A stretch of 10,260 bases of DNA from UHGV virus genome UHGV-0142988; one strand, given 5' to 3'. Made by a program: the position numbers and the translations under genes. Under the pieces are notes generated by a model that saw only the letters and a list, made by a program, of their open reading frames with translations, made no database searches and had not been told where the DNA came from. Numbering within the stretch: position 1 is the first letter of the stretch; every line of letters begins with the position of its first letter. This document shows, one piece after another, positions 1-10,260 of this stretch. Source of the DNA: a virus.

Positions 1-38
1 CGAGTCTCGTGGGCTTCGGAGATGTGTATAAGAGACAG
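1..38. other. Sequencing adapter remnant (Nextera/Tn5 mosaic end, one-base indel) at contig start; artefact
   Basis: Positions 20-38 read AGATGTGTATAAGAGACAG, the 19-bp Tn5 mosaic end, preceded by GTCTCGTGGGCT(T)CGG, the Nextera read-2 adapter with one extra T. Confidence 0.85.
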
Positions 39-42
39 CTCA

Positions 43-238
43 TGTCCGCCCCACACGGACACTTCCCCAAATTTGTCCGTCCACCACGGACACTCACAGA
101 CACAGATGTCCTCTGTACGCACACAACGGACAAAATAATAGTGCAATATACACAACTATTACTGGAAATCAATCCAATAATTGTGCACATTGCACTATAA
201 AAATCAGTTATTTTAGAACATTATGCTCTTGTGTCCGT
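43..238. repeat. Terminal-region short repeats TGTCCG(T)/ACGGACA: two hairpin-capable inverted pairs (~43-61, ~74-92) plus solo copies (~126-132, ~232-238)
   Basis: Six copies of the 6-7-mer within ~200 bp directly after the adapter; the first two pairs are inverted repeats with 5-7 nt spacers. Confidence 0.6.
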
Positions 239-269
239 GTGTGAGAGACACATACAGGGGTGATGTTTT

Positions 270-283
270 CGAACATGTGTTCT
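270..283. promoter_or_regulatory. Candidate LexA/DinR SOS box (Cheo-box-like, cGAAC-atgt-GTTCt), with an overlapping GTTC-tat-GAAC
   Basis: GAAC-N4-GTTC with 5' flanking C, ~17 bp upstream of the predicted -35. This is the only such site I found in the window. Confidence 0.5.
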
Positions 284-299
284 ATGAACAATATGGACT

Positions 300-328
300 T
301 TGAATAAATCTAAATAATTACATATAAT
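300..328 (+). promoter_or_regulatory. Candidate sigma-A-type promoter for the rightward early operon
   Basis: TTGAAT (-35, ~300-305), 17-bp spacer, TATAAT (-10, ~323-328); ~30 bp upstream of a GAGGTG RBS and the ATG at 359. Confidence 0.5.
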
Positions 329-358
329 AATGTTATCAAATGAAAGAGAGGTGAACAG

Positions 359-508
359 ATGACAGATTACGAAGAAAGCTACAAAAATTATCTTGCATGG
401 CTCACTCCACGTGAGCTATTGCATGAATACAAGATCATGCGTTTACCGTGGCGTTATCGGGAACGAAAATGGATCAAAGAAGAAATAGAAAGTAGGTGTG
501 TGTACTAA
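359..508 (+). CDS. Small hypothetical protein (49 aa; MTDYEESYKNYLAWL...), below the ORF-track length cutoff
   Basis: ATG with GAGGTG RBS ~7 nt upstream; first ORF after the promoter; read by eye. Confidence 0.35.
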   Translation: MTDYEESYKNYLAWLTPRELLHEYKIMRLPWRYRERKWIKEEIESRCVY

Positions 509-602
509 TGTTGGATGCTATATTGTGGTTTGGTTTTGGTGCTATATTAATTTTTCCGTATGGAGTTTGGTGTGGGGCAAAATGGTCAGGAGGATATAAG
601 AA

Positions 603-806
603 ATGAAAAATTATTGTGATATATGTTTTACATGTAATGATGCTGAAGTTTGTCATTCATGTAGCCAGCCAGAGATTTGTTCCGAATTTAAAAAGTGTTT
701 TGATCATAAGCCTTATATAATGTGGGAGAAAATGACAAGTTTTGACGATATCATGAGATGTGTTGAGAAATGGAGGGTGTACAATGAGCAGACCGTTAAA
801 CAGTAA
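603..806 (+). CDS. Small Cys-rich protein (67 aa), possible zinc-ribbon-like
   Basis: AGGAGG RBS ~7 nt upstream of the ATG; CxxCxxC...CxxC spacing in the N-terminal 32 residues (seven Cys). Confidence 0.55.
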   Translation: MKNYCDICFTCNDAEVCHSCSQPEICSEFKKCFDHKPYIMWEKMTSFDDIMRCVEKWRVYNEQTVKQ

Positions 807-1041
807 GAAGTCATGGTATAAGGTATATATCAAAGAATTAAATACACCGAATATCATTAAAAGTCAGTGTAAATATAAATGCGATTATCTATTAGTAAAG
901 GCATACACAGGATCAGTCGCAATGGCAATCGTGCAGGACTACGTTGTCGAGTTTGAAGAAAATTTCCGTCCTGTATACTACAACAAATTGGAGGGAGGTG
1001 TTCCTATTGACAACAAAAAAGTCTTATTTGAAGAAGAGTAA
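784..1041 (+). CDS. Hypothetical protein (86 aa from internal ATG; track ORF begins at 760)
   Basis: GGAGGG RBS ~6 nt upstream of the ATG at 784; overlaps the 3' end of the previous gene; protein-like composition. Confidence 0.45.
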   Translation: MSRPLNSKKSWYKVYIKELNTPNIIKSQCKYKCDYLLVKAYTGSVAMAIVQDYVVEFEENFRPVYYNKLEGGVPIDNKKVLFEEE

Positions 1042-1648
1042 ACCACAAGGTCTTATAAGAACAAAAGACGATTATACGCCGCTTGCTCTCGAGTTAACAT
1101 GGGATATGAAAGACGTTAGAAAAGAGTATTCACGGTTAAGATCAATCTGGCGTAAACGTTATGAAAGATTACTGAAATCTGACTATAAAGATATCAACCT
1201 TGTAACGGATCGACCGATCCAACGTTACAAGCAGTTGAAAGATATAACAAGTGATAGAGAACTCTATCACTTGTTATCTGAACTATCAACTATTATAGGA
1301 TCAGATCGAACTACAGTAACAGGATTGAAAAAACGGGAAAAAGAGCAGATGGAACACATCAACGATGTGTATGGAACAGAGTTAAAAACGCACGAAGATT
1401 TATTAAATTTTGGACGTTTCATGGAACAGTTACGGGATTTTGCATCTGATAGAATATACGATTCTGATTTTGCAGTTGATTTATATTCTGATGGTGAAAA
1501 GCTGAGTACGGGCAAAATGTTAGAGCTATACAAGGAATTTTTGAAAACTGGATCACGTAACATCGAAAAATTGAAATCTGGCATAGCAAAGAAAGAAAAA
1601 GCGAAACGTCAGAAGAGGAAAGCAGGCAAACGTAAACGTAGGAGGTAA
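1007..1648 (+). CDS. Candidate terminal protein (~213 aa if started at TTG 1007; track ORF 944..1648)
   Basis: Directly upstream of, and translationally coupled to, the protein-primed DNA polymerase (its stop lies in the polymerase RBS). Strongly basic C-terminal tail KKEKAKRQKRKAGKRKRRR. GGAGGGAGGTG lies ~6 nt upstream of TTG 1007. Function is from synteny, not homology. Confidence 0.45.
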   Translation: MTTKKSYLKKSKPQGLIRTKDDYTPLALELTWDMKDVRKEYSRLRSIWRKRYERLLKSDYKDINLVTDRPIQRYKQLKDITSDRELYHLLSELSTIIGSDRTTVTGLKKREKEQMEHINDVYGTELKTHEDLLNFGRFMEQLRDFASDRIYDSDFAVDLYSDGEKLSTGKMLELYKEFLKTGSRNIEKLKSGIAKKEKAKRQKRKAGKRKRRR

Positions 1649-1651
1649 CAC

Positions 1652-3733
1652 ATGGAAAATCTGTATACTATTGACACATATAATTATAATAGAATACGGA
1701 ATTTACCATGTTTACATGATACTAGGTCTAACAAAGGAAGTAAAAAAGCAAAAGGTTATAAAAATTGTCTGTGTGCTTTCGATATCGAAACAACTAGATT
1801 GGAAGATATCGAGCAGTCAATAATGTATATCTGGCAGTTTTCAATTCTTTTTCTTGATGATTTACATGTTGATACGATAATTGGAAGAACGTGGACAGAA
1901 TTTGAGTTATTTCTTGATAATCTTATGAATGACGATAACTATGCATATTATATGATTTTTGTTCATAATCTTTCATATGAATTTCAGTTTTTGCGTGGTA
2001 TATATACATTTTCACCGGATGAAGTTTTTGCCATAAAATCACGTAGAATATTGAAATGTGAAATGTTAGAGCGTTTCGAGTTTCGTTGCTCATATTTACA
2101 AACTAATATGTCACTAAATACGTTTACCTCAAAAATGAAAGTAAAACATCAGAAATTATCTGGTGAAAAATTCGATTATAGTAAAAAGCGTTTTCCATGG
2201 ACAGAACTAACCGATTATGAAATAAAGTATAGTACATACGACACGATTGGACTAGTTGAAGCAATGTATAAACGTATGATACTGTCAAATGACAATCTAT
2301 ATACACTACCATTAACGTCAACCGGTTATGTACGTCGTGAAACGAAAAAAGCCATGTATGGTTGGTCACGAAAACACAAGGATATATTTCCCACTATAGA
2401 TGTTTTCGATCTGCTAGAGGAGGCGTTTCGGGGCGGAGATACTCACGCTAACCGTTATTACTCAGGAACCGTGATACGTGCATATGGTAAAAATATTCTA
2501 GGAATCGGTTCATATGATAGGTCATCCTCTTATCCTGACGTTGTGTTGAATTGTGTTTTCCCGATGACACGTTTTGTATATATCGGATCAATAGATGAAT
2601 CTGATATAGATAAGAAACTGGATAGAGGAAAAGCACTCTTATTCCGATGTAAAATAACAGGTATTGAGCAGATCGACAAGTATTACGGATCGCCCTATAT
2701 TTCATATTCAAAATGTAGAAATGTTTCATGTGAAACACTTGACAATGGGCGTATTTTAAGTGCTGACTATATTGAAATAACGCTCACTGATATTGATTAT
2801 GAGATAATGAAACGTGAGTACAAATGGAAACATTTTGAAATAACAGAGTGTTATGAGAGTAAATACGGAGCATTGCCAGAACCGTTGAAAGACATTTTCC
2901 GTAAATATTATACTGACAAAACAGAGTTAAAAGGAATCGTGGAACAGGAACTTTTCTACAACTTGCAAAAGGCTTTGCTTAACGCTGGCTATGGAATGAT
3001 GGTTCAATCACCCGTGAAACAGTCGTTAATATTTACAGAATCGGCAGAAAACATATATACAGTTGATGAAAATGTTTCACGTGAAACATTACTCACTAAA
3101 TATAACAGAACAGCTTTCTTGCCTTATCAATGGGGTGTTTGGGTAACAGCATGGGCACGCCAGCGATTGAAAGAGGGTATAAACATAGTTGGAGATCGTT
3201 ACGTTTACAGCGATACGGATTCAGTAAAATATATAAAAGTAAGAGGTGATAATATTGACGAGTTATTTGATAGATACAATTCTGAGAGAAAAGAGCAAAG
3301 TATCTCCAATTCCGCATACGCAACAGACCGTTATGGCGTTAAACATTATATGGGGGTGTATGAATTCGAGGATACGTATACTGAATTCTCCACCATTGGT
3401 ACAAAAAAATATGTCTATAGAACTAAAGATGGAAAACTACACGCAACAATCGCAGGAGTTAATAAAAAGCTTGCACCGGATGAGTTGGAAGAACATGGAG
3501 GAATTGAAGCTTTCAAAACTGGATTTACCTTTTTACGATCAGGAGGAACTGAAAGCGTGTACAATGACGTTCCTTATGGGGATTACACCGTGGAAAATCA
3601 TGTTTTAAAAATTACACAAAATGTAGTTATCAGACCGTCAACTTACACAATAGGAATAACAGATGAGTACCGTAGGATTTTGGCAGACGCAAGAACATTA
3701 AAAGAATTTAAATATACTTTTGACAAAAATTAA
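1652..3733 (+). CDS. Protein-primed family-B DNA polymerase (693 aa)
   Basis: AGGAGG RBS. Exo I FDIETT, Exo II HNLSYEF, Exo III YSTYDTIGLVEAM, motif A YDRSSSYP (Dx2SLYP-like), motif B KALLNAGYG (Kx3NSxYG-like), motif C YSDTDS, KxY in TIGTKKYVY. Confidence 0.95.
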   Translation: MENLYTIDTYNYNRIRNLPCLHDTRSNKGSKKAKGYKNCLCAFDIETTRLEDIEQSIMYIWQFSILFLDDLHVDTIIGRTWTEFELFLDNLMNDDNYAYYMIFVHNLSYEFQFLRGIYTFSPDEVFAIKSRRILKCEMLERFEFRCSYLQTNMSLNTFTSKMKVKHQKLSGEKFDYSKKRFPWTELTDYEIKYSTYDTIGLVEAMYKRMILSNDNLYTLPLTSTGYVRRETKKAMYGWSRKHKDIFPTIDVFDLLEEAFRGGDTHANRYYSGTVIRAYGKNILGIGSYDRSSSYPDVVLNCVFPMTRFVYIGSIDESDIDKKLDRGKALLFRCKITGIEQIDKYYGSPYISYSKCRNVSCETLDNGRILSADYIEITLTDIDYEIMKREYKWKHFEITECYESKYGALPEPLKDIFRKYYTDKTELKGIVEQELFYNLQKALLNAGYGMMVQSPVKQSLIFTESAENIYTVDENVSRETLLTKYNRTAFLPYQWGVWVTAWARQRLKEGINIVGDRYVYSDTDSVKYIKVRGDNIDELFDRYNSERKEQSISNSAYATDRYGVKHYMGVYEFEDTYTEFSTIGTKKYVYRTKDGKLHATIAGVNKKLAPDELEEHGGIEAFKTGFTFLRSGGTESVYNDVPYGDYTVENHVLKITQNVVIRPSTYTIGITDEYRRILADARTLKEFKYTFDKN

Positions 3734-3781
3734 CATATGTGTTATAATTCATGTAAAGAGATATTACAAGGAGGTGATAAT

Positions 3782-4036
3782 ATGAAAATTACACGTTCAT
3801 TAACAGTTAACAAGATCAACGTTATCTGCTACGATCCTGAGAATAAGTGTGAGTTTGTACAGGAAGTTGGTTTGATCGGAAATCTTACTGATGAGCAGAT
3901 CAGCAAAGAGATTAAAAAAAGAAATTTTGGAATTGTTATTGATTGGGAAAGAACATCAGAAGAAACAAAATTATACGGAATGGATGCCGAAGTGTTTTTA
4001 AAAAATGCAATCATTATTAAAGAAAAGGAGAACTAA
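3782..4036 (+). CDS. Hypothetical small protein (84 aa from internal ATG)
   Basis: AGGAGGTG RBS ~6 nt upstream of the ATG at 3782; sits between polymerase and ATPase genes. Confidence 0.55.
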   Translation: MKITRSLTVNKINVICYDPENKCEFVQEVGLIGNLTDEQISKEIKKRNFGIVIDWERTSEETKLYGMDAEVFLKNAIIIKEKEN

Positions 4037-4039
4037 ATC

Positions 4040-4474
4040 ATGGCAAAGAATTATACTATCATTAAATCATCGGGAAACCTTGATACCTATTCAGAATATG
4101 AACTCATCGAGTCACCTGCAATCGTTTCACTTAAAAACGTAGAAAACAAAGGACTTATCTGTGTTGGAGCGTGGGTGAAATATCTTACCACCGACAATAT
4201 CGGAAATGAAATAACCTGCATTTCAGTGCAGGACGCAAACACAGGAGAGGTATTCTCAGGTCAGTCAGCACCTTTCAGAGAAACATTCGAGGCTGTTACC
4301 GATCGTATTTCTGACATGGACGAAGCTCCAGAAATGTTTTTCATCGAGGTTCTTCATAGACAGTCAAAGTCAGGTCGTGATTATCTTATGTGCGCACTTG
4401 TTTCCCCGGATCGTGCTTTTGCCCGCATGGGATATACTGAAAAGAACATTCCTATGCCAGAGCCCCAGAAATAA
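4040..4474 (+). CDS. Hypothetical protein (144 aa); an SSB or DNA-binding role is only a positional guess
   Basis: AAGGAGA RBS before the ATG at 4040; tightly packed with neighbours; no motif recognised. Confidence 0.6.
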   Translation: MAKNYTIIKSSGNLDTYSEYELIESPAIVSLKNVENKGLICVGAWVKYLTTDNIGNEITCISVQDANTGEVFSGQSAPFRETFEAVTDRISDMDEAPEMFFIEVLHRQSKSGRDYLMCALVSPDRAFARMGYTEKNIPMPEPQK

Positions 4475-4475
4475 T

Positions 4476-5525
4476 ATGTTATCGTTATACGAAAATAGCG
4501 GGTATCTATCGATACCCGCTATTTTAGGATATGGACAAAAGTTTAATTACATCTGGGGTGGCCGTGGTACGGGGAAAACTTACGGTGCTCTTAAATACTG
4601 TATTGAACATAAAAAAATTTTTGCTTATATGCGATCATTGCAAACACAAATTGATATGATTAAAATTCCAGAACTTTCACCTTTTAAAAAATTAAATCGT
4701 GATTTAGGATGGTCAATATATCCGAAAAGTGTCGGGAAAAATATTGCTGTGTATTATAATGCAGAAATTGACGAAAATGGTAAAATAAAATATACTGGAG
4801 ATATACTCGGTTATTCCATAGCGTTAAATACATTTGCCAATTTACGAGGTTTTGATGCATCAGACGTTGAGATAGGAATATATGATGAATTTATCCCCGA
4901 AAAACGTGAACGCAAAGTTGAAAATGCTGGATATGCTTTTAAAAACGCATATGAAACAATGAATCGAAACCGTGAACTTGATGGAATTAATCCGATACAG
5001 TTTTTATTGTTTTCTAATTCTGAAAGTTTATCATGTGATATGTTTATAGAGAATAATTTAATGGAAAAAGTATCGAGCATGGATATTAATAAACAATCTA
5101 TGTCTATTATACGTGATAGAGGTATTGGACTTTTTAACTTGTATGATTCGCCGATTTCTGAAAAGAAAAAAGACACAGCTCTGTATAAAATGTCTGGATC
5201 AGATTCAGCATTTAACAGGATGGCACTAGGAAATGAATTTTATTCCGCTGATTATTCAGGAATTAGAAGCATGAACATTAAAGAACTGATACCACTATGT
5301 AAAATGGACGCTATTACAATATATCAGCACAAGAGAAAAGACTTAATATATGTAACACGGCACAGCTCTGGTACACCGCCAGAGTATTCCAATACAGATA
5401 AGGATGTAAAAGCTTTCAGACGAGATTTTATTTATTTATGGGATATGTATTTATCAAACAAGGTGCTGTTTGAGGATATCACAAGCAAGTCCCTATTTGA
5501 GATTTATTTTAAAAATAAATATTGA
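4476..5525 (+). CDS. P-loop ATPase, phi29 gp16-like DNA encapsidation ATPase candidate (349 aa from the ATG right after the upstream stop)
   Basis: Walker A GGRGTGKT near the N-terminus and Walker B EIGIYDEF about 110 residues later. Size and motif spacing fit phage packaging ATPases of the ASCE/FtsK-HerA class. Confidence 0.75.
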   Translation: MLSLYENSGYLSIPAILGYGQKFNYIWGGRGTGKTYGALKYCIEHKKIFAYMRSLQTQIDMIKIPELSPFKKLNRDLGWSIYPKSVGKNIAVYYNAEIDENGKIKYTGDILGYSIALNTFANLRGFDASDVEIGIYDEFIPEKRERKVENAGYAFKNAYETMNRNRELDGINPIQFLLFSNSESLSCDMFIENNLMEKVSSMDINKQSMSIIRDRGIGLFNLYDSPISEKKKDTALYKMSGSDSAFNRMALGNEFYSADYSGIRSMNIKELIPLCKMDAITIYQHKRKDLIYVTRHSSGTPPEYSNTDKDVKAFRRDFIYLWDMYLSNKVLFEDITSKSLFEIYFKNKY

Positions 5526-5671
5526 TTTTGTGTTTTATATCTGATATTATCTTTAATAGAAAGACAAGTGTTCGTGGCACACGTACAACACGTCGGGAGC
5601 GTGGGATCATAAGAATCCAATGTGCATGAGCATGTACAGCTCAAGAATTTGTAACACTTAATCTTTCATCA

Positions 5672-5708
5672 CATATGCAGAGTGTCAAAGCCTGCATATG
5701 TTTTGTTT
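5672..5708 (+). terminator. Candidate intrinsic terminator after the ATPase operon
   Basis: 9-bp stem CATATGCAG / CTGCATATG with an 11-nt loop, followed by TTTTGTTT. Confidence 0.55.
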
Positions 5709-5754
5709 CACGTGAAACATTTATCACCTTTCTTTAATGTTTCACGTGAAACAT
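5704..5754. promoter_or_regulatory. Tandem palindromic operator-like sites: TGTTTCACGTGAAACA (~5704-5719) and ATGTTTCACGTGAAACAT (~5737-5754)
   Basis: Two perfect 16-18-bp palindromes 33 bp apart, directly upstream of a TATAAT-like element (~5774-5779) and the RBS of the gene at 5791. Confidence 0.6.
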
Positions 5755-5790
5755 GTTATATGTTGTGCTAATATATAATGGAGGTGAAAT

Positions 5791-5988
5791 ATGGACGTTA
5801 ACTCATTATCAACTCTTATCAGTAACATTGGTGTGCCTTGCGCCTGCCTTATTGCGACTTTCTATCTTTGGCAGAAAGAAACGGATTCTCACAAAGAAGA
5901 AATGAAACGCATGACAGACGCACTCAACAACAACACTCAGGCACTTACAAAACTCACAGAACATATCACAGGAAGTGAAAAAAAATGA
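5791..5988 (+). CDS. Small single-pass membrane protein, holin-like (65 aa)
   Basis: GGAGGTG RBS; one hydrophobic segment (LSTLISNIGVPCACLIATFYLW) then a charged C-terminal tail; ATGA overlap with the next gene. Confidence 0.55.
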   Translation: MDVNSLSTLISNIGVPCACLIATFYLWQKETDSHKEEMKRMTDALNNNTQALTKLTEHITGSEKK

Positions 5989-6230
5989 CGATTAACTACA
6001 ACAAAAATATCAGAGGTGTGTATATCGTCGCAACGAACACAGGGCCTCTGATGGTCAGGGCAGAGCCTAGTACAGACGGAACAGTTATCGCAGAAATGCC
6101 GAAAAACACAAAATGCATCTGTCTAGGATGCTATTCTGGAAACTGGTATGCAGTCATTTACGAACATGACAGTATCATTTCCACCGGCTTTTCTCACAAA
6201 AATTATCTCAGGAGGGATTATAAGATATGA
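5985..6230 (+). CDS. Stand-alone SH3b-like cell-wall-binding domain protein (81 aa)
   Basis: Pattern GVYIVATNTGPLMVRAEPSTDGTVIAEMPKNTKCICLG...GNWYAVIYEH...GFSHKNYLRR resembles bacterial SH3 domains; no catalytic domain attached. Confidence 0.6.
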   Translation: MTINYNKNIRGVYIVATNTGPLMVRAEPSTDGTVIAEMPKNTKCICLGCYSGNWYAVIYEHDSIISTGFSHKNYLRRDYKI

Positions 6231-6421
6231 CGTTAGACAACTTAATTACACTCATTTCAGCAGGATTCACGAAAGAAGAGATCCTCACAATGTCAGGTAC
6301 AGTCACCCAGCGTGCCCCACAGCCACAGCCACAGCCACAGCCACAGCCACAGCCACAGCCACAGCCACAGCCACAAAATACAAAGCAGAAATTGCAAAAT
6401 CAAGATCTAAATACAAATTAA
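6227..6421 (+). CDS. Small protein with a (PQ)10 linker-like repeat (64 aa)
   Basis: ATGA overlap with the upstream gene; contains the in-frame hexamer repeat. Confidence 0.5.
   Translation: MTLDNLITLISAGFTKEEILTMSGTVTQRAPQPQPQPQPQPQPQPQPQPQNTKQKLQNQDLNTN
6317..6375. repeat. Tandem hexanucleotide repeat (CCACAG) x ~9.8
   Basis: Perfect tandem copies read directly in the sequence; encodes PQPQ... in the 6227 ORF frame. Confidence 0.95.
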
Positions 6422-6608
6422 GTGATATTTTAATTCGTGTAGAAAAAAATAGCCTTTATTTTTATTTGCGTAAATGATTCCTTTACTTTTAGCACTAAAA
6501 GCAAGAAAACTATAATTTTATAATTTTCTTTGTTTAAGGCCAGTAATGTTTTCGGCGTTTCAATTGTCCTCGACGAAGGCCGCTTCCGCGACCTTATCTA
6601 GCCCGTGC

Positions 6609-6965
6609 TCATTGAGAACGATCAACTACCATGTATGTTGGTTGACACAGGCTGCCGCGTTCCTGTAACCAGTAGTAATCAAGATCCGCAACACGCATAT
6701 CCAACCCCGAATCCACACGATTGATCTGTAACCGCAGCCCTACAGTATCTTTGTACGATAAACCAGATTTAACATTGTACTTGTACTTAACCCCGCTTTC
6801 TTCTTCAAAAGATTTGAGATAAGGGGGGATTTGCTTCTGAATTTCTTTCAAACAAATAACTTCCCCATCAATTACGAACGGCTTTTCAGTTTTACCGTCA
6901 GGAATAGTAGCCGCAATTGTGGTTAATGGAACTATCGACAACAGTACTGATAATGCTCTTTTCAT
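6609..6965 (-). CDS. Secreted small protein with N-terminal signal peptide (118 aa from the MKRALS start)
   Basis: AAGGGGA RBS before the internal ATG; MKRALSVLLSIVPLTTIAA is signal-peptide-like with no lipobox Cys; ~20 nt downstream of the partner gene. Confidence 0.6.
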   Translation of the reverse strand: MKRALSVLLSIVPLTTIAATIPDGKTEKPFVIDGEVICLKEIQKQIPPYLKSFEEESGVKYKYNVKSGLSYKDTVGLRLQINRVDSGLDMRVADLDYYWLQERGSLCQPTYMVVDRSQ

Positions 6966-6987
6966 CTGTTCTTCCCCTTGAATATAA

Positions 6988-7599
6988 TCATTGTTTAGAA
7001 CAAATTTGTGTAATGGTTGCATTATGGTTAAATTCAACATCAATTACTTTTATAGTATTATCATTAAGTACAGATACAAAATAATTACTTGACGAATTTC
7101 CGTACTTCCTTGAACCATCTGCTGCAATCTTGTTGAATTTAGCAGTATACACACTATCTTTATCGCCGGGAATTGGCATTCGACTGATTAATTCATTATC
7201 GGAAATAGTATAATAAATTAAAATTCCTTTATCTGAATAGTAACCTGAATCGCTTTTTGTTCCCTGTCGAGTTTGTATTATTGCATCGAACTTATCGCAT
7301 TTATAAACATTGGTTTTGGCCTTTTCAGTACTGGTAGACGTTGAAGCCTTTACATCAGTACTTTTATCTTGTGAAACAACCCCGGAACCGATACCTACCG
7401 AAACGACAAAGACAATAAAACTCATGCCTAACGACGTAATCAAAGTACGGAACTTTCCCCGACCTTTATTTCTGGAATAGTTTGAAACTTTCCTGAAAGT
7501 AAGTACTGCAAGGATCACACAAATGATGAAAACGACAAGCCCGGCCATAAAATCCCTCAAACGTTGTGTATCAAAGGCAATCATAGTATCACTTCGCAA
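6988..7599 (-). CDS. Two-TM membrane protein with Ser/Thr-rich ~130-aa extracytoplasmic domain (203 aa, or 198 aa from ATG 7584)
   Basis: Hydrophobic segments AGLVVFIICVILAVLTF and LITSLGMSFIVFVVSVGIGSGVV separated by a basic loop; TTG start in the track with an in-frame ATG 5 codons later. Confidence 0.6.
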   Translation of the reverse strand: MRSDTMIAFDTQRLRDFMAGLVVFIICVILAVLTFRKVSNYSRNKGRGKFRTLITSLGMSFIVFVVSVGIGSGVVSQDKSTDVKASTSTSTEKAKTNVYKCDKFDAIIQTRQGTKSDSGYYSDKGILIYYTISDNELISRMPIPGDKDSVYTAKFNKIAADGSRKYGNSSSNYFVSVLNDNTIKVIDVEFNHNATITQICSKQ

Positions 7600-7601
7600 T
7601 A

Positions 7602-7624
7602 CATTGATCGATTAAAGCGATCAA
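7602..7624. promoter_or_regulatory. Palindrome ATTGATCG-attaaag-CGATCAAT in a divergent control region (7600-7700) that also carries three ATCAAT copies
   Basis: 8-bp inverted repeat just upstream of the leftward gene start and upstream of the rightward leader. Confidence 0.35.
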
Positions 7625-7699
7625 TTTTTGATTTTCGATCGGTTAAATCTATCAATATCTATTAATTGAAGACAAATCAATAGGTAAAAACGATCAGAC

Positions 7700-8100
7700 G
7701 TTGGTCAGTACTTCGGAAACACCAGAAGTATGGTTTGGGTCTGCCGTTTAAACGCCCTCAGAAAACCGCTAAGGTCTCTTTATCGCATATGGCTTGGGAT
7801 TTCAGCCTTTGGCTAAAATCGCTTTCAGGGGGGCTTCTTGTGCGTTTTGTCGGGAACACCATCATGGAGGGGGATAAATCGGATCGAAGTCGCTTCGCTC
7901 TGGTCAGTACTGGAAGGGTTAGCTTATCTGGCGAGGGAAGATGAATTGCCAGGCTTCATGAAGATGGTTGGTTTTGTGGACAAGAAGAACTGCCGTTTTG
8001 AGTATTCCCCCTCACACCCAACAAACCTACCCATTAGCAAGGGGGAGTACTTTCTCGTAGTATACAGAACGAATAAATTCTTTGTATACTTCCGTTTTAT
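7700..8100 (+). ncRNA. Candidate structured 5' leader / cis-regulatory RNA (class unassigned)
   Basis: ~400 nt without a convincing ORF, visibly more GC than flanks. 12-bp stem (~8001-8012 / 8040-8051, one G-U pair) with a C/A-rich 27-nt loop, then an AT-rich hairpin (~8059-8090) plus U-tract just before the downstream start. The 11-mer TGGTCAGTACT occurs twice (~7703, ~7901). Confidence 0.35.
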
Positions 8101-8111
8101 CCTAAAGCGAT

Positions 8112-8801
8112 TTGATTATGGACGAGAATAATAAAGAAGTTATTGAAATAAGACCAGAAGATAAGGACTTTTTCGCAGAATTTATTGATTGTGAAGGTCC
8201 AATTATCCAAGATTCAATTGATCATAAAAAAATCACCCTCGCACTTGATAAAGCCCACGACATAAGAAAGTTTGAAATAGATCTCTATTGGAAGCGTGCT
8301 ACATACTTCTTCGCATTCTTCACTGTAATAACAGCTGCATTTGGTTATTTGTTCACCCATGACAACTATACTTTCTTAGCCCCTGCACTTGCGATCATTG
8401 GTTCTGTTTTTGCTTTATGTTTTTGTTATGTGAATATCGGTAGTAAGTATTGGCAAGAAAACTGGGAGTTTATAATTGATAAAATTGAATATTATGTCAC
8501 AGGAAACCTTTATAAACTTTTCTTCTTCGAAAACCATAGAACCAAACGCCCATCAGTCACTAAGATTAATATATTTCTAAGCAAGCTAATTATAGCTACA
8601 TGGTACGCTTGCTTTATACTTTCCATGCACCAGATATGGAATCAAAGCATGGTATTAAATGTCTCTTATATTATCCTTACCATATATAGCACTGGAACGA
8701 CATTATATTACTGCGATAAAACTGTTGCAGACATATCGAACAATGATAAAGAATCACCACGATTCTTTAGATTCAGAAATCCTAATTACATAAAATCATA
8801 A
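8112..8801 (+). CDS. Multi-pass (about 4 TM) membrane protein with ~60-aa soluble N-terminal domain (229 aa; probable ATG at 8118)
   Basis: Four hydrophobic segments (ATYFFAFFTVITAAFGYLF; FLAPALAIIGSVFALCFCYVNI; INIFLSKLIIATWYACFILSMH; MVLNVSYIILTIYSTGTTLYY); weak RBS. Confidence 0.65.
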   Translation: MIMDENNKEVIEIRPEDKDFFAEFIDCEGPIIQDSIDHKKITLALDKAHDIRKFEIDLYWKRATYFFAFFTVITAAFGYLFTHDNYTFLAPALAIIGSVFALCFCYVNIGSKYWQENWEFIIDKIEYYVTGNLYKLFFFENHRTKRPSVTKINIFLSKLIIATWYACFILSMHQIWNQSMVLNVSYIILTIYSTGTTLYYCDKTVADISNNDKESPRFFRFRNPNYIKS

Positions 8802-8805
8802 ACAT

Positions 8806-8824
8806 GGGGGCATTTGATGCCCCT
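8806..8824 (+). terminator. Candidate terminator hairpin GGGGCAT-ttg-ATGCCCC just after the stop codon
   Basis: Perfect 7-bp GC-rich stem with 3-nt loop; the downstream U-tract is weak on plus and better on the minus strand. Confidence 0.45.
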
Positions 8825-9065
8825 TGTAAATTGATAATCCGACCTAAAAACACTTTGAGTACTTCATTTGTCAGTACTGTTATCTGTTTGAGCGAAAGCG
8901 AGTAACGGCTTTGGCGTGCTTTCGAGTACTGCGAGAAAAACGCAAAGTTACGATCTGATATTTGGTTTTTATAGAGACTAACAAGCAAAGCGAAGTTAGG
9001 CTCTTTAGATACTGAATATCAGTAAGGCTAATACATTCAAAATATCAGGTGAAAGGCAATATTAT

Positions 9066-9194
9066 ATTAAGTTACGGTTATTCACCCCACTGCATAAAAC
9101 AAGAATAACCTACTGATTTTACGGACTTTTATTTGAATAATAATTCACTAATAATCATGATAACCGTATTTCTTAGTTTTAAGTTACGGTTATA
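9066..9194. repeat. 15-bp direct repeat TTAAGTTACGGTTAT (~9067-9081 and ~9179-9193) with an inverted partial copy ATAACCGTA (~9161-9169)
   Basis: Read directly; lies in a convergent intergenic region abutting the 3' end of the gene at 9202. Confidence 0.7.
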
Positions 9195-9201
9195 GGTACG
9201 A

Positions 9202-9669
9202 TTAAACAATGGTTCGTAGATATGCAATCAGATCTTTCGCTGAGGCATTACTGTTCAATAATTCCTGTACTGCGTTCTTCTGTTCGTCGGTTAATGGCTT
9301 ACCAGGCAATGCTTTCTTTAGTCCACATAGCGTACCACCTTCTTCTACAAACTTATCCAATGCTTTAGCAACTGCGGTACAGGCTAATTTGTACTTCTCG
9401 ATAGATGATTCACTTGCTGCAAATTTCTTCATCTGATCTGAACGGGTTAAGGTAAGATAATACTTAACCTGTACTTTTGAAAGCTCTGTAGCGTGTTTGA
9501 CGATGTAGAAGACATCTTTAACAGGTAACTTGTACTTTCCCAATGATTTACACTCTTGAATCGTCTGGTTAATTATTAGAGTTGCTTCTGATGTTAGGCC
9601 ACTGTAAGTAACACGTTTTAGTGCTTCTTCTAACTTTTTATTGTTATAAATCCTTTCTTTTTTTGCCAT
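9202..9669 (-). CDS. Hypothetical protein (155 aa)
   Basis: Clean ORF with ATG start; protein-like composition; no motif recognised. Confidence 0.6.
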   Translation of the reverse strand: MAKKERIYNNKKLEEALKRVTYSGLTSEATLIINQTIQECKSLGKYKLPVKDVFYIVKHATELSKVQVKYYLTLTRSDQMKKFAASESSIEKYKLACTAVAKALDKFVEEGGTLCGLKKALPGKPLTDEQKNAVQELLNSNASAKDLIAYLRTIV

Positions 9670-9759
9670 GATAAATACCCCTATGGAAGATGTTAATTAA
9701 TATTGGCCTGATGTATTCCTAATACTCAGGCTTTTTATTTAAGAAGAAAATGGGTGGGG

Positions 9760-10026
9760 TTATACTCCACGTACCTTCTTGAACCATTCACGATACTCTG
9801 GCACTTTATTTTTGCGTAAATTGCTAATGAAATCTTGATCGCAATTAACTTTAAGTAAATTACAAATCCTAGCACTTGTCATATCACTTAGTAGGATATT
9901 CTCGTACTGAGAGAATGTTAGTTGAATGAAATTAACCTTTTCTTTCTTTCGAACTGATTTGTTCAATGACTTCCTATTAGTCCTGATTTTATTTTTTGTT
10001 TTTATTTTACCGTTTTTCTTTGACAT
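9760..10026 (-). CDS. Small basic protein with possible C-terminal helix-turn-helix (88 aa)
   Basis: GGAGTG RBS before the ATG; very basic N-terminus (KKNGKIKTKNKIRTNRK) followed by an HTH-like segment. Confidence 0.55.
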   Translation of the reverse strand: MSKKNGKIKTKNKIRTNRKSLNKSVRKKEKVNFIQLTFSQYENILLSDMTSARICNLLKVNCDQDFISNLRKNKVPEYREWFKKVRGV

Positions 10027-10260
10027 TTTGTCACTCCTCTAAATTAAAATTCATCTCATGGTTAACCTCCTACGGCTGTTGTTTATGTTCGATTGGCTAT
10101 ATGTTAACGGGCAAAATTGCCCCAATCAAGGAATAGTTGCAACTTTTTCTTGACAAGATCATTACTATTCAAGTCAAAAAATCATATATCATTTAGGCAC
10201 TATCTTTGGGTAATGACTCCAACTTATTGATAGTGTTTTATGTTCAGATAATGCCCGATG

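Follow-up and report, generated by a model that had tools for sequence, protein, structure and literature searches.

The polymerase gene and its motifs

The locus is centered on a gene for a protein-primed family B DNA polymerase, as judged from homologs and profiles, located on the plus strand of the window, i.e., the whole 10,260-nucleotide stretch of DNA that was analysed. The gene and the motifs recognised in its product are as follows:

1652-3733, plus strand: protein-primed family B DNA polymerase gene, 693 aa (ORF; profile, hhalign, and AF2/Foldseek matches)
1781-1789, plus strand: Exo I, D44-I-E46 (translation; aligned with phi29 D12/E14; D44 and E46 in 151 of 151 sequences with residues there)
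1964-1990, plus strand: Exo II, H105-N-L-S-Y-E110-F-Q-F113, i.e., HNLSYEFQF (translation; alignments; AF2 model)
2153-2155, plus strand: K168, counterpart of phi29 Lys143 (Kx2hxA, auxiliary exonuclease lysine; hhalign against the phi29 LKGD lysine; Lys in 155 of 155)
2228-2242, plus strand: Exo III, Y193-S-T-Y-D197 (aligned with phi29 Y165/D169; Y193 and D197 in 156 of 156)
2513-2539, plus strand: polymerase motif A, YDRSSSYPD, including D289 (alignments; D289 in 156 of 156)
2969-2995, plus strand: polymerase motif B, KALLNAGYG (alignments; K440 and G448 in 156 of 156)
3206-3223, plus strand: polymerase motif C, YSDTDS, including D521 and D523 (alignments; both Asp in 156 of 156)

The sequence agrees with the patterns expected of polymerase motifs A (Dx2SLYP), B (Kx3NSxYG), and C (YxDTDS), and with those of Exo I (D-x-E), Exo III (Y-x3-D), and the Kx2hxA lysine; an SSYP variant of SLYP in motif A has previously been noted for Clostridium phages (PMC3362512). 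The exception is Exo II. Positions 1955-1990 correspond in the polymerase frame to residues I102-F113, IFVHNLSYEFQF, and here the pattern N-x(2-3)-[FY]-D is broken at its last residue: N106 and Y109 are kept, and the carboxylate is supplied by Glu110 (codon GAA, 1979-1981), such that the chemical group is retained and the identity of the residue is changed. The DEDDy set (Asp-Glu-Asp-Asp plus Tyr) accordingly reads Asp44-Glu46-Glu110-Asp197 plus Tyr193, a DEED-Tyr variant in which the third carboxylate is Glu.

Genomic setting

The polymerase gene is adjoined by genes encoding a gp16-type ATPase and a protein assigned to the phrog “dsDNA binding protein”, while the ORF directly upstream (944/1007-1648) gave no family match. 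A complete 14.1-kb relative encodes a gp16 packaging ATPase, a Phi29_MCP capsid protein, a connector, and a lysozyme, which is the gene set expected of a phi29-like phage. Positions 230-285 of the window match the far end of this relative with 96% identity in reverse orientation, suggesting a terminal repeat.

The window itself is a chimeric contig composed of adapter, phage DNA, and then E. coli DNA with the end of an IS1 element. Its first 38 nucleotides (...AGATGTGTATAAGAGACAG) are adapter sequence of the Nextera type, and positions 39-6346 are colinear with the 14.1-kb gut phage at 88% identity. Phage similarity stops inside a (CCACAG)n microsatellite at approximately 6317-6375, a repeat also found in a chromosomal gene of E. 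coli. Positions 6380-10208 match the chromosome of 29 E. coli genomes at 99.9% identity and include the gene for the RipA/8xMP octameric membrane protein (8112-8801), and the IS1 end occupies 10204-10260; none of 67 related phage loci matched 6381-10260. Since the polymerase gene lies entirely in the phage part, what is said below of its Glu is unaffected by the chimera.

Assignment to the phi29 type

On its own, the window polymerase is too divergent for single-sequence searches of Pfam, PHROGs, and the PDB, and profiles are needed. The lone protein had no Pfam match at E<=1 (PF03175 included), and its PHROGs and PDB sequence searches returned nothing useful. PF03175 (DNA_pol_B_2) was matched, however, by 11 of 21 close homologs, with a best E-value of 5.4e-15. 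Homologs are plentiful, numbering 7065 proteins at E<=1e-3 in a word-indexed search and 3417 clusters at 50% identity in an exhaustive HMMER scan at the same threshold, and in public databases these polymerases are annotated just as “DNA polymerase” or carry no annotation.

A profile built from the 21 homologs (alignment A1) retrieved phi29 polymerase (1xhx, E 4e-8) in a HMMER search of the PDB, with Exo III and motifs A, B, and C aligned; residues 169-530 aligned well and residues 41-94 weakly, and the Exo II region was skipped. Because the phi29 chains in the PDB carry the D12A/D66A substitutions, a wild-type phi29-type profile made from GenBank phage records was used with hhalign, the wild-type polymerases taken from GenBank being those of phi29, Gxv1, Av-1, RHph_N3_8, CH17P1, Cp-1, PRD1, 44AHJD, and Bam35. 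Comparison of A1 (21 sequences) with the resulting profile A2 (5 sequences) gave a probability of 99.6% and an E-value of 2.9e-24 over 513 columns. Structure prediction pointed the same way. The AlphaFold2 (AF2) model built on A1 has a mean pLDDT of 86.5 and a pTM of 0.81, and phi29 polymerase entries account for all nine of its best Foldseek matches in the PDB (E 1.7e-27 to 3.5e-26; target-normalised TM 0.73-0.78), with archaeal family B enzymes scoring far lower, at approximately 1e-11. The whole-length structural match to phi29 polymerase (TM 0.75-0.78) is consistent with the presence in the predicted fold of TPR1 and TPR2, insertions peculiar to protein-primed enzymes. By the similarity of its homologs and profiles, then, the window polymerase is a protein-primed family B DNA polymerase of the phi29 type.

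Position of E110 opposite phi29 Asp66

The original prediction had aligned HNLSYEFQF by eye with the phi29 segment HNLKFDGAF, thereby placing a Glu at the position of the catalytic Exo II Asp, and had described Exo I (DIE) and Exo III (YSTYD) as canonical in appearance. The canonical character of the latter two motifs was confirmed at 1781-1789 and 2228-2242, respectively. The placement of the Glu was reproduced by MAFFT alignments of 11, 15, and 20 protein-primed polymerases, in which N106 falls under Asn62, Y109 under Phe65, E110 under Asp66, and F113 under Phe69. It was also reproduced by the profile alignment that had been proposed as a check, in which hhalign pairs “VHNLSYEFQF” with “fhnlkfdg~f” and E110 with Asp66 (phi29 Asp66 is D62 in A2, the first sequence of which starts four residues later than the canonical 575-aa protein). 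An alignment putting a conserved Asp at the catalytic position was looked for and was not found; each of these alignments sets E110 opposite Asp66, conserved Asp residues are absent nearby, and the caveat that the pairing might equally be a misalignment did not hold up.

The second proposed check, structure prediction, places E110 in the first turn of a helix (107-114) that follows beta-strand 4 (99-104), with a block pLDDT of 90-94 around E110. In DnaQ-like domains, the Exo II Asp occupies the first turn of the helix after that strand. Among 156 aligned sequences, moreover, column 110 is the sole 100% acidic column between Exo I and Exo III (residues 47-192), the next most acidic being E143 (148/155) and D175 (126/155). 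The stretch HNLSYEFQFLR is invariant in the 21 homologs, down to 53% identity. This invariance, together with a column restricted to Glu and Asp and a codon that is GAA or GAG throughout the related loci, indicates that the Exo II motif is not a chance match. Alignments and model alike put E110 at the position that the Exo II carboxylate, Asp66, holds in phi29.

Distribution and conservation of the glutamate

Conservation was assessed in an alignment of 156 sequences, comprising the window protein, 150 cluster representatives that are 40-50% identical to it, and five enzymes from cultured phages. Two fragments do not cover the E110 region; in the remaining 154 sequences, which include 149 of the 150 cluster representatives, column 110 holds Glu in 149, Asp in five, and no other residue. 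D44, E46, Y193, D197, D289, D521, and D523 are all invariant in the sequences covering each position. The five Asp-bearing sequences share 37-43% mutual identity and are not each other's closest relatives. For each of them the nearest neighbours with a residue at column 110 are Glu-type, although for two the single closest sequence is a fragment lacking that column. Asp and Glu thus interchange at this position, and the switch to Asp looks recurrent and scattered across the alignment. At the nucleotide level, the E110 codon is GAA in 66 and GAG in one of the 67 related phage loci, a usage too uniform for any argument about selection beyond the protein-level counts.

A reference set of 20 polymerases divides into eight with Glu and 12 with Asp:

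Glu-type: the window polymerase; Clostridium HM2; Amedibacillus AD70P3; Salmonella astrithr; Vibrio K58 g2; C. perfringens phi24R and CPS1; gut contig MT835901
Asp-type: phi29; Gxv1; Av-1; RHph_N3_8; CH17P1; Cp-1; PRD1; 44AHJD; Bam35; gut contigs MT839814, MT835861, and MT835873

Six of the Glu-type enzymes (HM2, AD70P3, astrithr, K58 g2, phi24R, and CPS1) belong to isolated, propagating phages. From its distribution across these sequences, the Glu is a lineage trait that the Guelinviridae and Astrithrvirus share with a very large group of uncultured gut phages; phi24R, CPS1, and AD70P3 are the members of the Guelinviridae considered here, HM2 is an unclassified Clostridium phage, and the lineage also holds Vibrio phage K58 g2. 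A comparison of six Glu-type with nine Asp-type references revealed no clear compensatory partner within the exonuclease domain, where only column 110 discriminates between the two types. The other columns that separate them (224, 227, 228, 353, 365, and 366) all lie outside that domain.

A predicted DEED-Tyr proofreading site

The exonuclease site of phi29-type polymerases is the textbook “DEDD” site (PMC6351526, PMC4974454). In phi29 polymerase, two metal ions are bound by the carboxylates of Asp12, Glu14, Asp66, and Asp169, with Tyr165 orienting the water that attacks and Lys143 in an assisting role; most of the contacts that the protein makes to the metal B water shell are lost on D12A/D66A double substitution (PMC4974454). 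The D12A/D66A enzyme is the standard exonuclease-deficient version and is also impaired in strand displacement (PMC6351526).

The reading that best accounts for the observations, to which we assign a probability of roughly 80%, is that E110 is the true equivalent of Asp66 in a DnaQ-like 3'-5' proofreading site, whose catalytic set would comprise Asp44, Glu46, Glu110, and Asp197 together with Tyr193 and Lys168 (“DEED-Tyr”) and would carry out ordinary two-metal-ion exonucleolysis. In such a site, Glu110 would stand in for the Exo II Asp, its carboxylate holding the second metal ion and that ion's water shell in place, and the local backbone would make room for the extra methylene of Glu. From conservation alone we infer an active exonuclease of this form, in which Glu110 would be a ligand of the metal site; the DEEDh site of coronavirus nsp14 offers a natural precedent. 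The swap is conservative, a large phage clade has it fixed, and the other residues of the proofreading site are all retained; it thus most likely represents a functional variant as opposed to a defective one. Likewise, the acceptance of only Glu or Asp at the position, the invariance of the other exonuclease residues, and the carriage of Glu by viable cultured phages argue for a proofreading site that has adapted to Glu rather than been weakened by it. The Glu may also modulate proofreading, as the original prediction suggested. Enzymatic data for a Glu-type polymerase were searched for in the accessible literature, and none were found.

A possible but doubtful extension of this reading is that Glu adaptively re-tunes the proofreading site, as opposed to being a neutral look-alike of Asp, and marks an old, very large polymerase clade. 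The 149:5 preference for Glu, even though an Asp codon is just one transversion away, suggests a polymerase scaffold tuned to Glu, and this preference, along with the appearance of Asp in several separate lineages, is compatible with re-tuning. If it were true, Glu-type and phi29-type enzymes would be expected to differ in metal B binding (e.g., Mg/Mn preference), in the balance of exonuclease to polymerase activity, or in the coupling of the exonuclease domain to strand displacement, and an E110D swap would be detectably worse in the scaffold of the window polymerase.

It is unlikely that the exonuclease is instead attenuated or re-purposed, with Glu lowering proofreading (giving a higher mutation rate or an altered exonuclease-to-polymerase balance) or with the domain kept mainly for strand displacement or interactions with the terminal protein. 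For the Klenow fragment, more than 96% of exonuclease activity was reportedly lost when catalytic carboxylates were replaced conservatively (cited in PMC7654266), so that Asp and Glu cannot simply be exchanged within a given scaffold. The strand-displacement defect of phi29 D12A/D66A shows in addition that the Asp residues of the site affect more than exonucleolysis (PMC6351526), and the skew toward Glu, whose codon differs from that of Asp by a single third-position transversion, suggests that Glu itself may be selected for some property. However, a relaxed or non-catalytic site should admit residues other than Asp and Glu, and none of the 154 sequences has one; the rest of the catalytic set, Tyr193 and Lys168 included, likewise shows no variation. 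Tyr193 and Lys168 are not known to act outside exonucleolysis, which further counts against a re-purposed domain.

Far less probable still is a misalignment in which E110 is a bystander and a different residue is the true Exo II Asp. HMMER did leave Exo II unaligned to phi29, and there is a precedent for such an error, in that motif II of the coronavirus exonuclease nsp14 was originally placed at D243 before being reassigned to E191 (PMC7654266). Against this stand the agreement of hhalign with three MAFFT alignments, the match of the flanking H-N-L-x-[YF] and x-x-F to phi29 H61-N62-L63-x-F65 and F69, the lack of any other fully acidic column within 47-192, the presence of Asp at exactly column 110 in five relatives, and the fit of the predicted secondary structure around E110. 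Finally, a sequencing or assembly error might be suspected in a chimeric contig that begins with adapter, but this explanation is rejected as having almost no chance of being correct, given that the whole gene falls within the phage part (39 to ~6346) and that, beyond the 149/154 Glu column, all 67 related phage loci, from independent samples, carry a Glu codon, as do isolated phages.

Novelty and implications

Isothermal DNA amplification uses phi29-type polymerases as its standard enzymes. In the searchable literature, outside subscription journals, no account was found of a protein-primed polymerase with Glu at Exo II. For example, a 2012 paper on C. perfringens podoviruses comments on motifs A and C and leaves the exonuclease unmentioned (PMC3362512), and the accessible portion of a 2024 review of phi29-like phages makes no mention of the Exo II residue. 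The DEED-Tyr form of this known proofreading site may thus be new as far as the searchable literature extends, and prior mention is possible.

The existence of a large natural clade with Glu would indicate that the fourth carboxylate of a DNA proofreading polymerase can be either acidic residue, in parallel with the DEEDh site of nsp14. In practical terms, motif annotation that demands Asp would miscall Glu-type enzymes as exonuclease-deficient, E110 would be the residue to target in making exonuclease-deficient versions of them, and these polymerases offer a natural source of variants in which the proofreading balance is possibly different. As the substitution is conservative and probably functionally quiet, its biological importance is modest.

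Comparison with known systems

The closest well-characterised counterpart is the polymerase of phi29 (Salasmaviridae; PDB 1XHX, 2PZS, and 2EX3), which shares the predicted fold (Foldseek E ~1e-27; target-normalised TM 0.75-0.78) and the order of motifs (Exo I, Exo II, Kx2hxA, Exo III, A, B, and C). The gene neighbourhoods are also similar, both including a gp16-type packaging ATPase, with complete relatives of the window phage further encoding the Phi29_MCP capsid protein and a connector. The window enzyme differs from that of phi29 in having Glu for Asp66, in motif A (SSSYP versus NSLYP), and in motif B (YGM versus YGK); it is approximately 120 residues longer, is ~17% identical in the structural alignment, and is missed by PF03175 when searched on its own.

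Among cultured phages, HM2, phi24R, CPS1, AD70P3, astrithr, and K58 g2 share with the window polymerase the Exo II pattern HN-x-x-Y-E. HM2, AD70P3, astrithr, and K58 g2 have genomes of 10-17 kb and polymerases 32-35% identical to the window protein, whereas the match to phi24R and CPS1 is confined to the C-terminal 30% of the window query. The window phage, unlike these cultured Glu-type phages, is a member of an uncultured group from the human gut with genomes of ~14 kb.

Beyond phages, the coronavirus nsp14 ExoN resembles the window enzyme in being a proofreading exonuclease of the DEDD superfamily with Glu in motif II, an analogy that is one of mechanism only. It differs in acting on RNA, in belonging to the His subtype, and in having zinc fingers and nsp10 as a cofactor, whereas the Exo III motif of the window enzyme carries Tyr in place of His. 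The motif II residue of this natural DEEDh enzyme is Glu191, an E191D mutant of the MERS-CoV protein is viable with near wild-type activity, and Glu and Asp alternate at the motif II site among nidovirus ExoNs (PMC7654266).

Chimeric structure of the contig

The window is a chimeric assembly, with its junction at approximately positions 6317-6375. Similarity to the related 14-kb phages ends here, within a (CCACAG)n microsatellite, and positions 6380-10208 show 99.9% identity to E. coli chromosomal DNA (29 genomes). This hexanucleotide repeat is found in the phage relatives and also in an E. coli gene, and the false join between phage and E. coli sequence is explained by the fact that the two have it in common. 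Many public contigs from this phage group end at approximately 6.0-6.4 kb, and these end points probably reflect assembly breaks at this (CCACAG)n repeat, which also lies behind the window's chimera.

Two features beyond the junction were annotated:

8112-8801, + strand: octameric membrane protein gene, family 8xMP/RipA (PF24838, E 3.2e-28; assigned to the RipA family by E. coli annotation)
10204-10260 (right end of the window): terminal part of IS1, 96-98% identity to IS1 copies

The 8xMP/RipA gene, located in the E. coli part of the window, is flanked by hypothetical genes, and a site-specific integrase lies nearby in the E. coli genome; for these reasons, the gene probably resides within a genomic island. 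The IS1 copies that match the right end are present in phage P1 and many plasmids.

Left end of the contig and possible terminal repeats

The contig begins with a Nextera-type transposase adapter, occupying positions 1-38 (CGAGTCTCGTGGGCTTCGGAGATGTGTATAAGAGACAG), and alignment to the related phage places the start of phage DNA at approximately position 39. An ORF at 9..200 in the ORF listing of the window (MGFGDVYKRQ...) is, in part, translated adapter. Slightly further in, positions 230-285 match positions 13925-13871 of L011, at the far end of this complete 14.1-kb relative, in reverse orientation and with 96% identity; positions 138-197 also match L011 164-105, again reversed. Judging from sequence, the reverse match of positions 230-285 is consistent with inverted terminal repeats a few hundred bases in length, as would be expected of a protein-primed linear genome.

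Comparison with phi29-like phages

One ORF adjoins the polymerase gene on its 5' side, and two motif regions of the polymerase were compared across the reference polymerases:

944/1007-1648, + strand: upstream ORF, 213-234 aa, with a basic C-terminus (KKEKAKRQKRKAGKRKRRR)
2513-2539, + strand: motif A region, polymerase residues 288-296
2969-3001, + strand: motif B region, polymerase residues 440-450

The upstream ORF, which had no match in Pfam or PHROGs, sits where phi29-like phages have their terminal-protein gene. In motif A, the reference polymerases nearest the window protein carry SSYP, as in Clostridium phages, rather than the SLYP of phi29; this SSYP variant has already been described (PMC3362512). 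Likewise, their motif B reads YGM, whereas phi29-type enzymes possess YGK.
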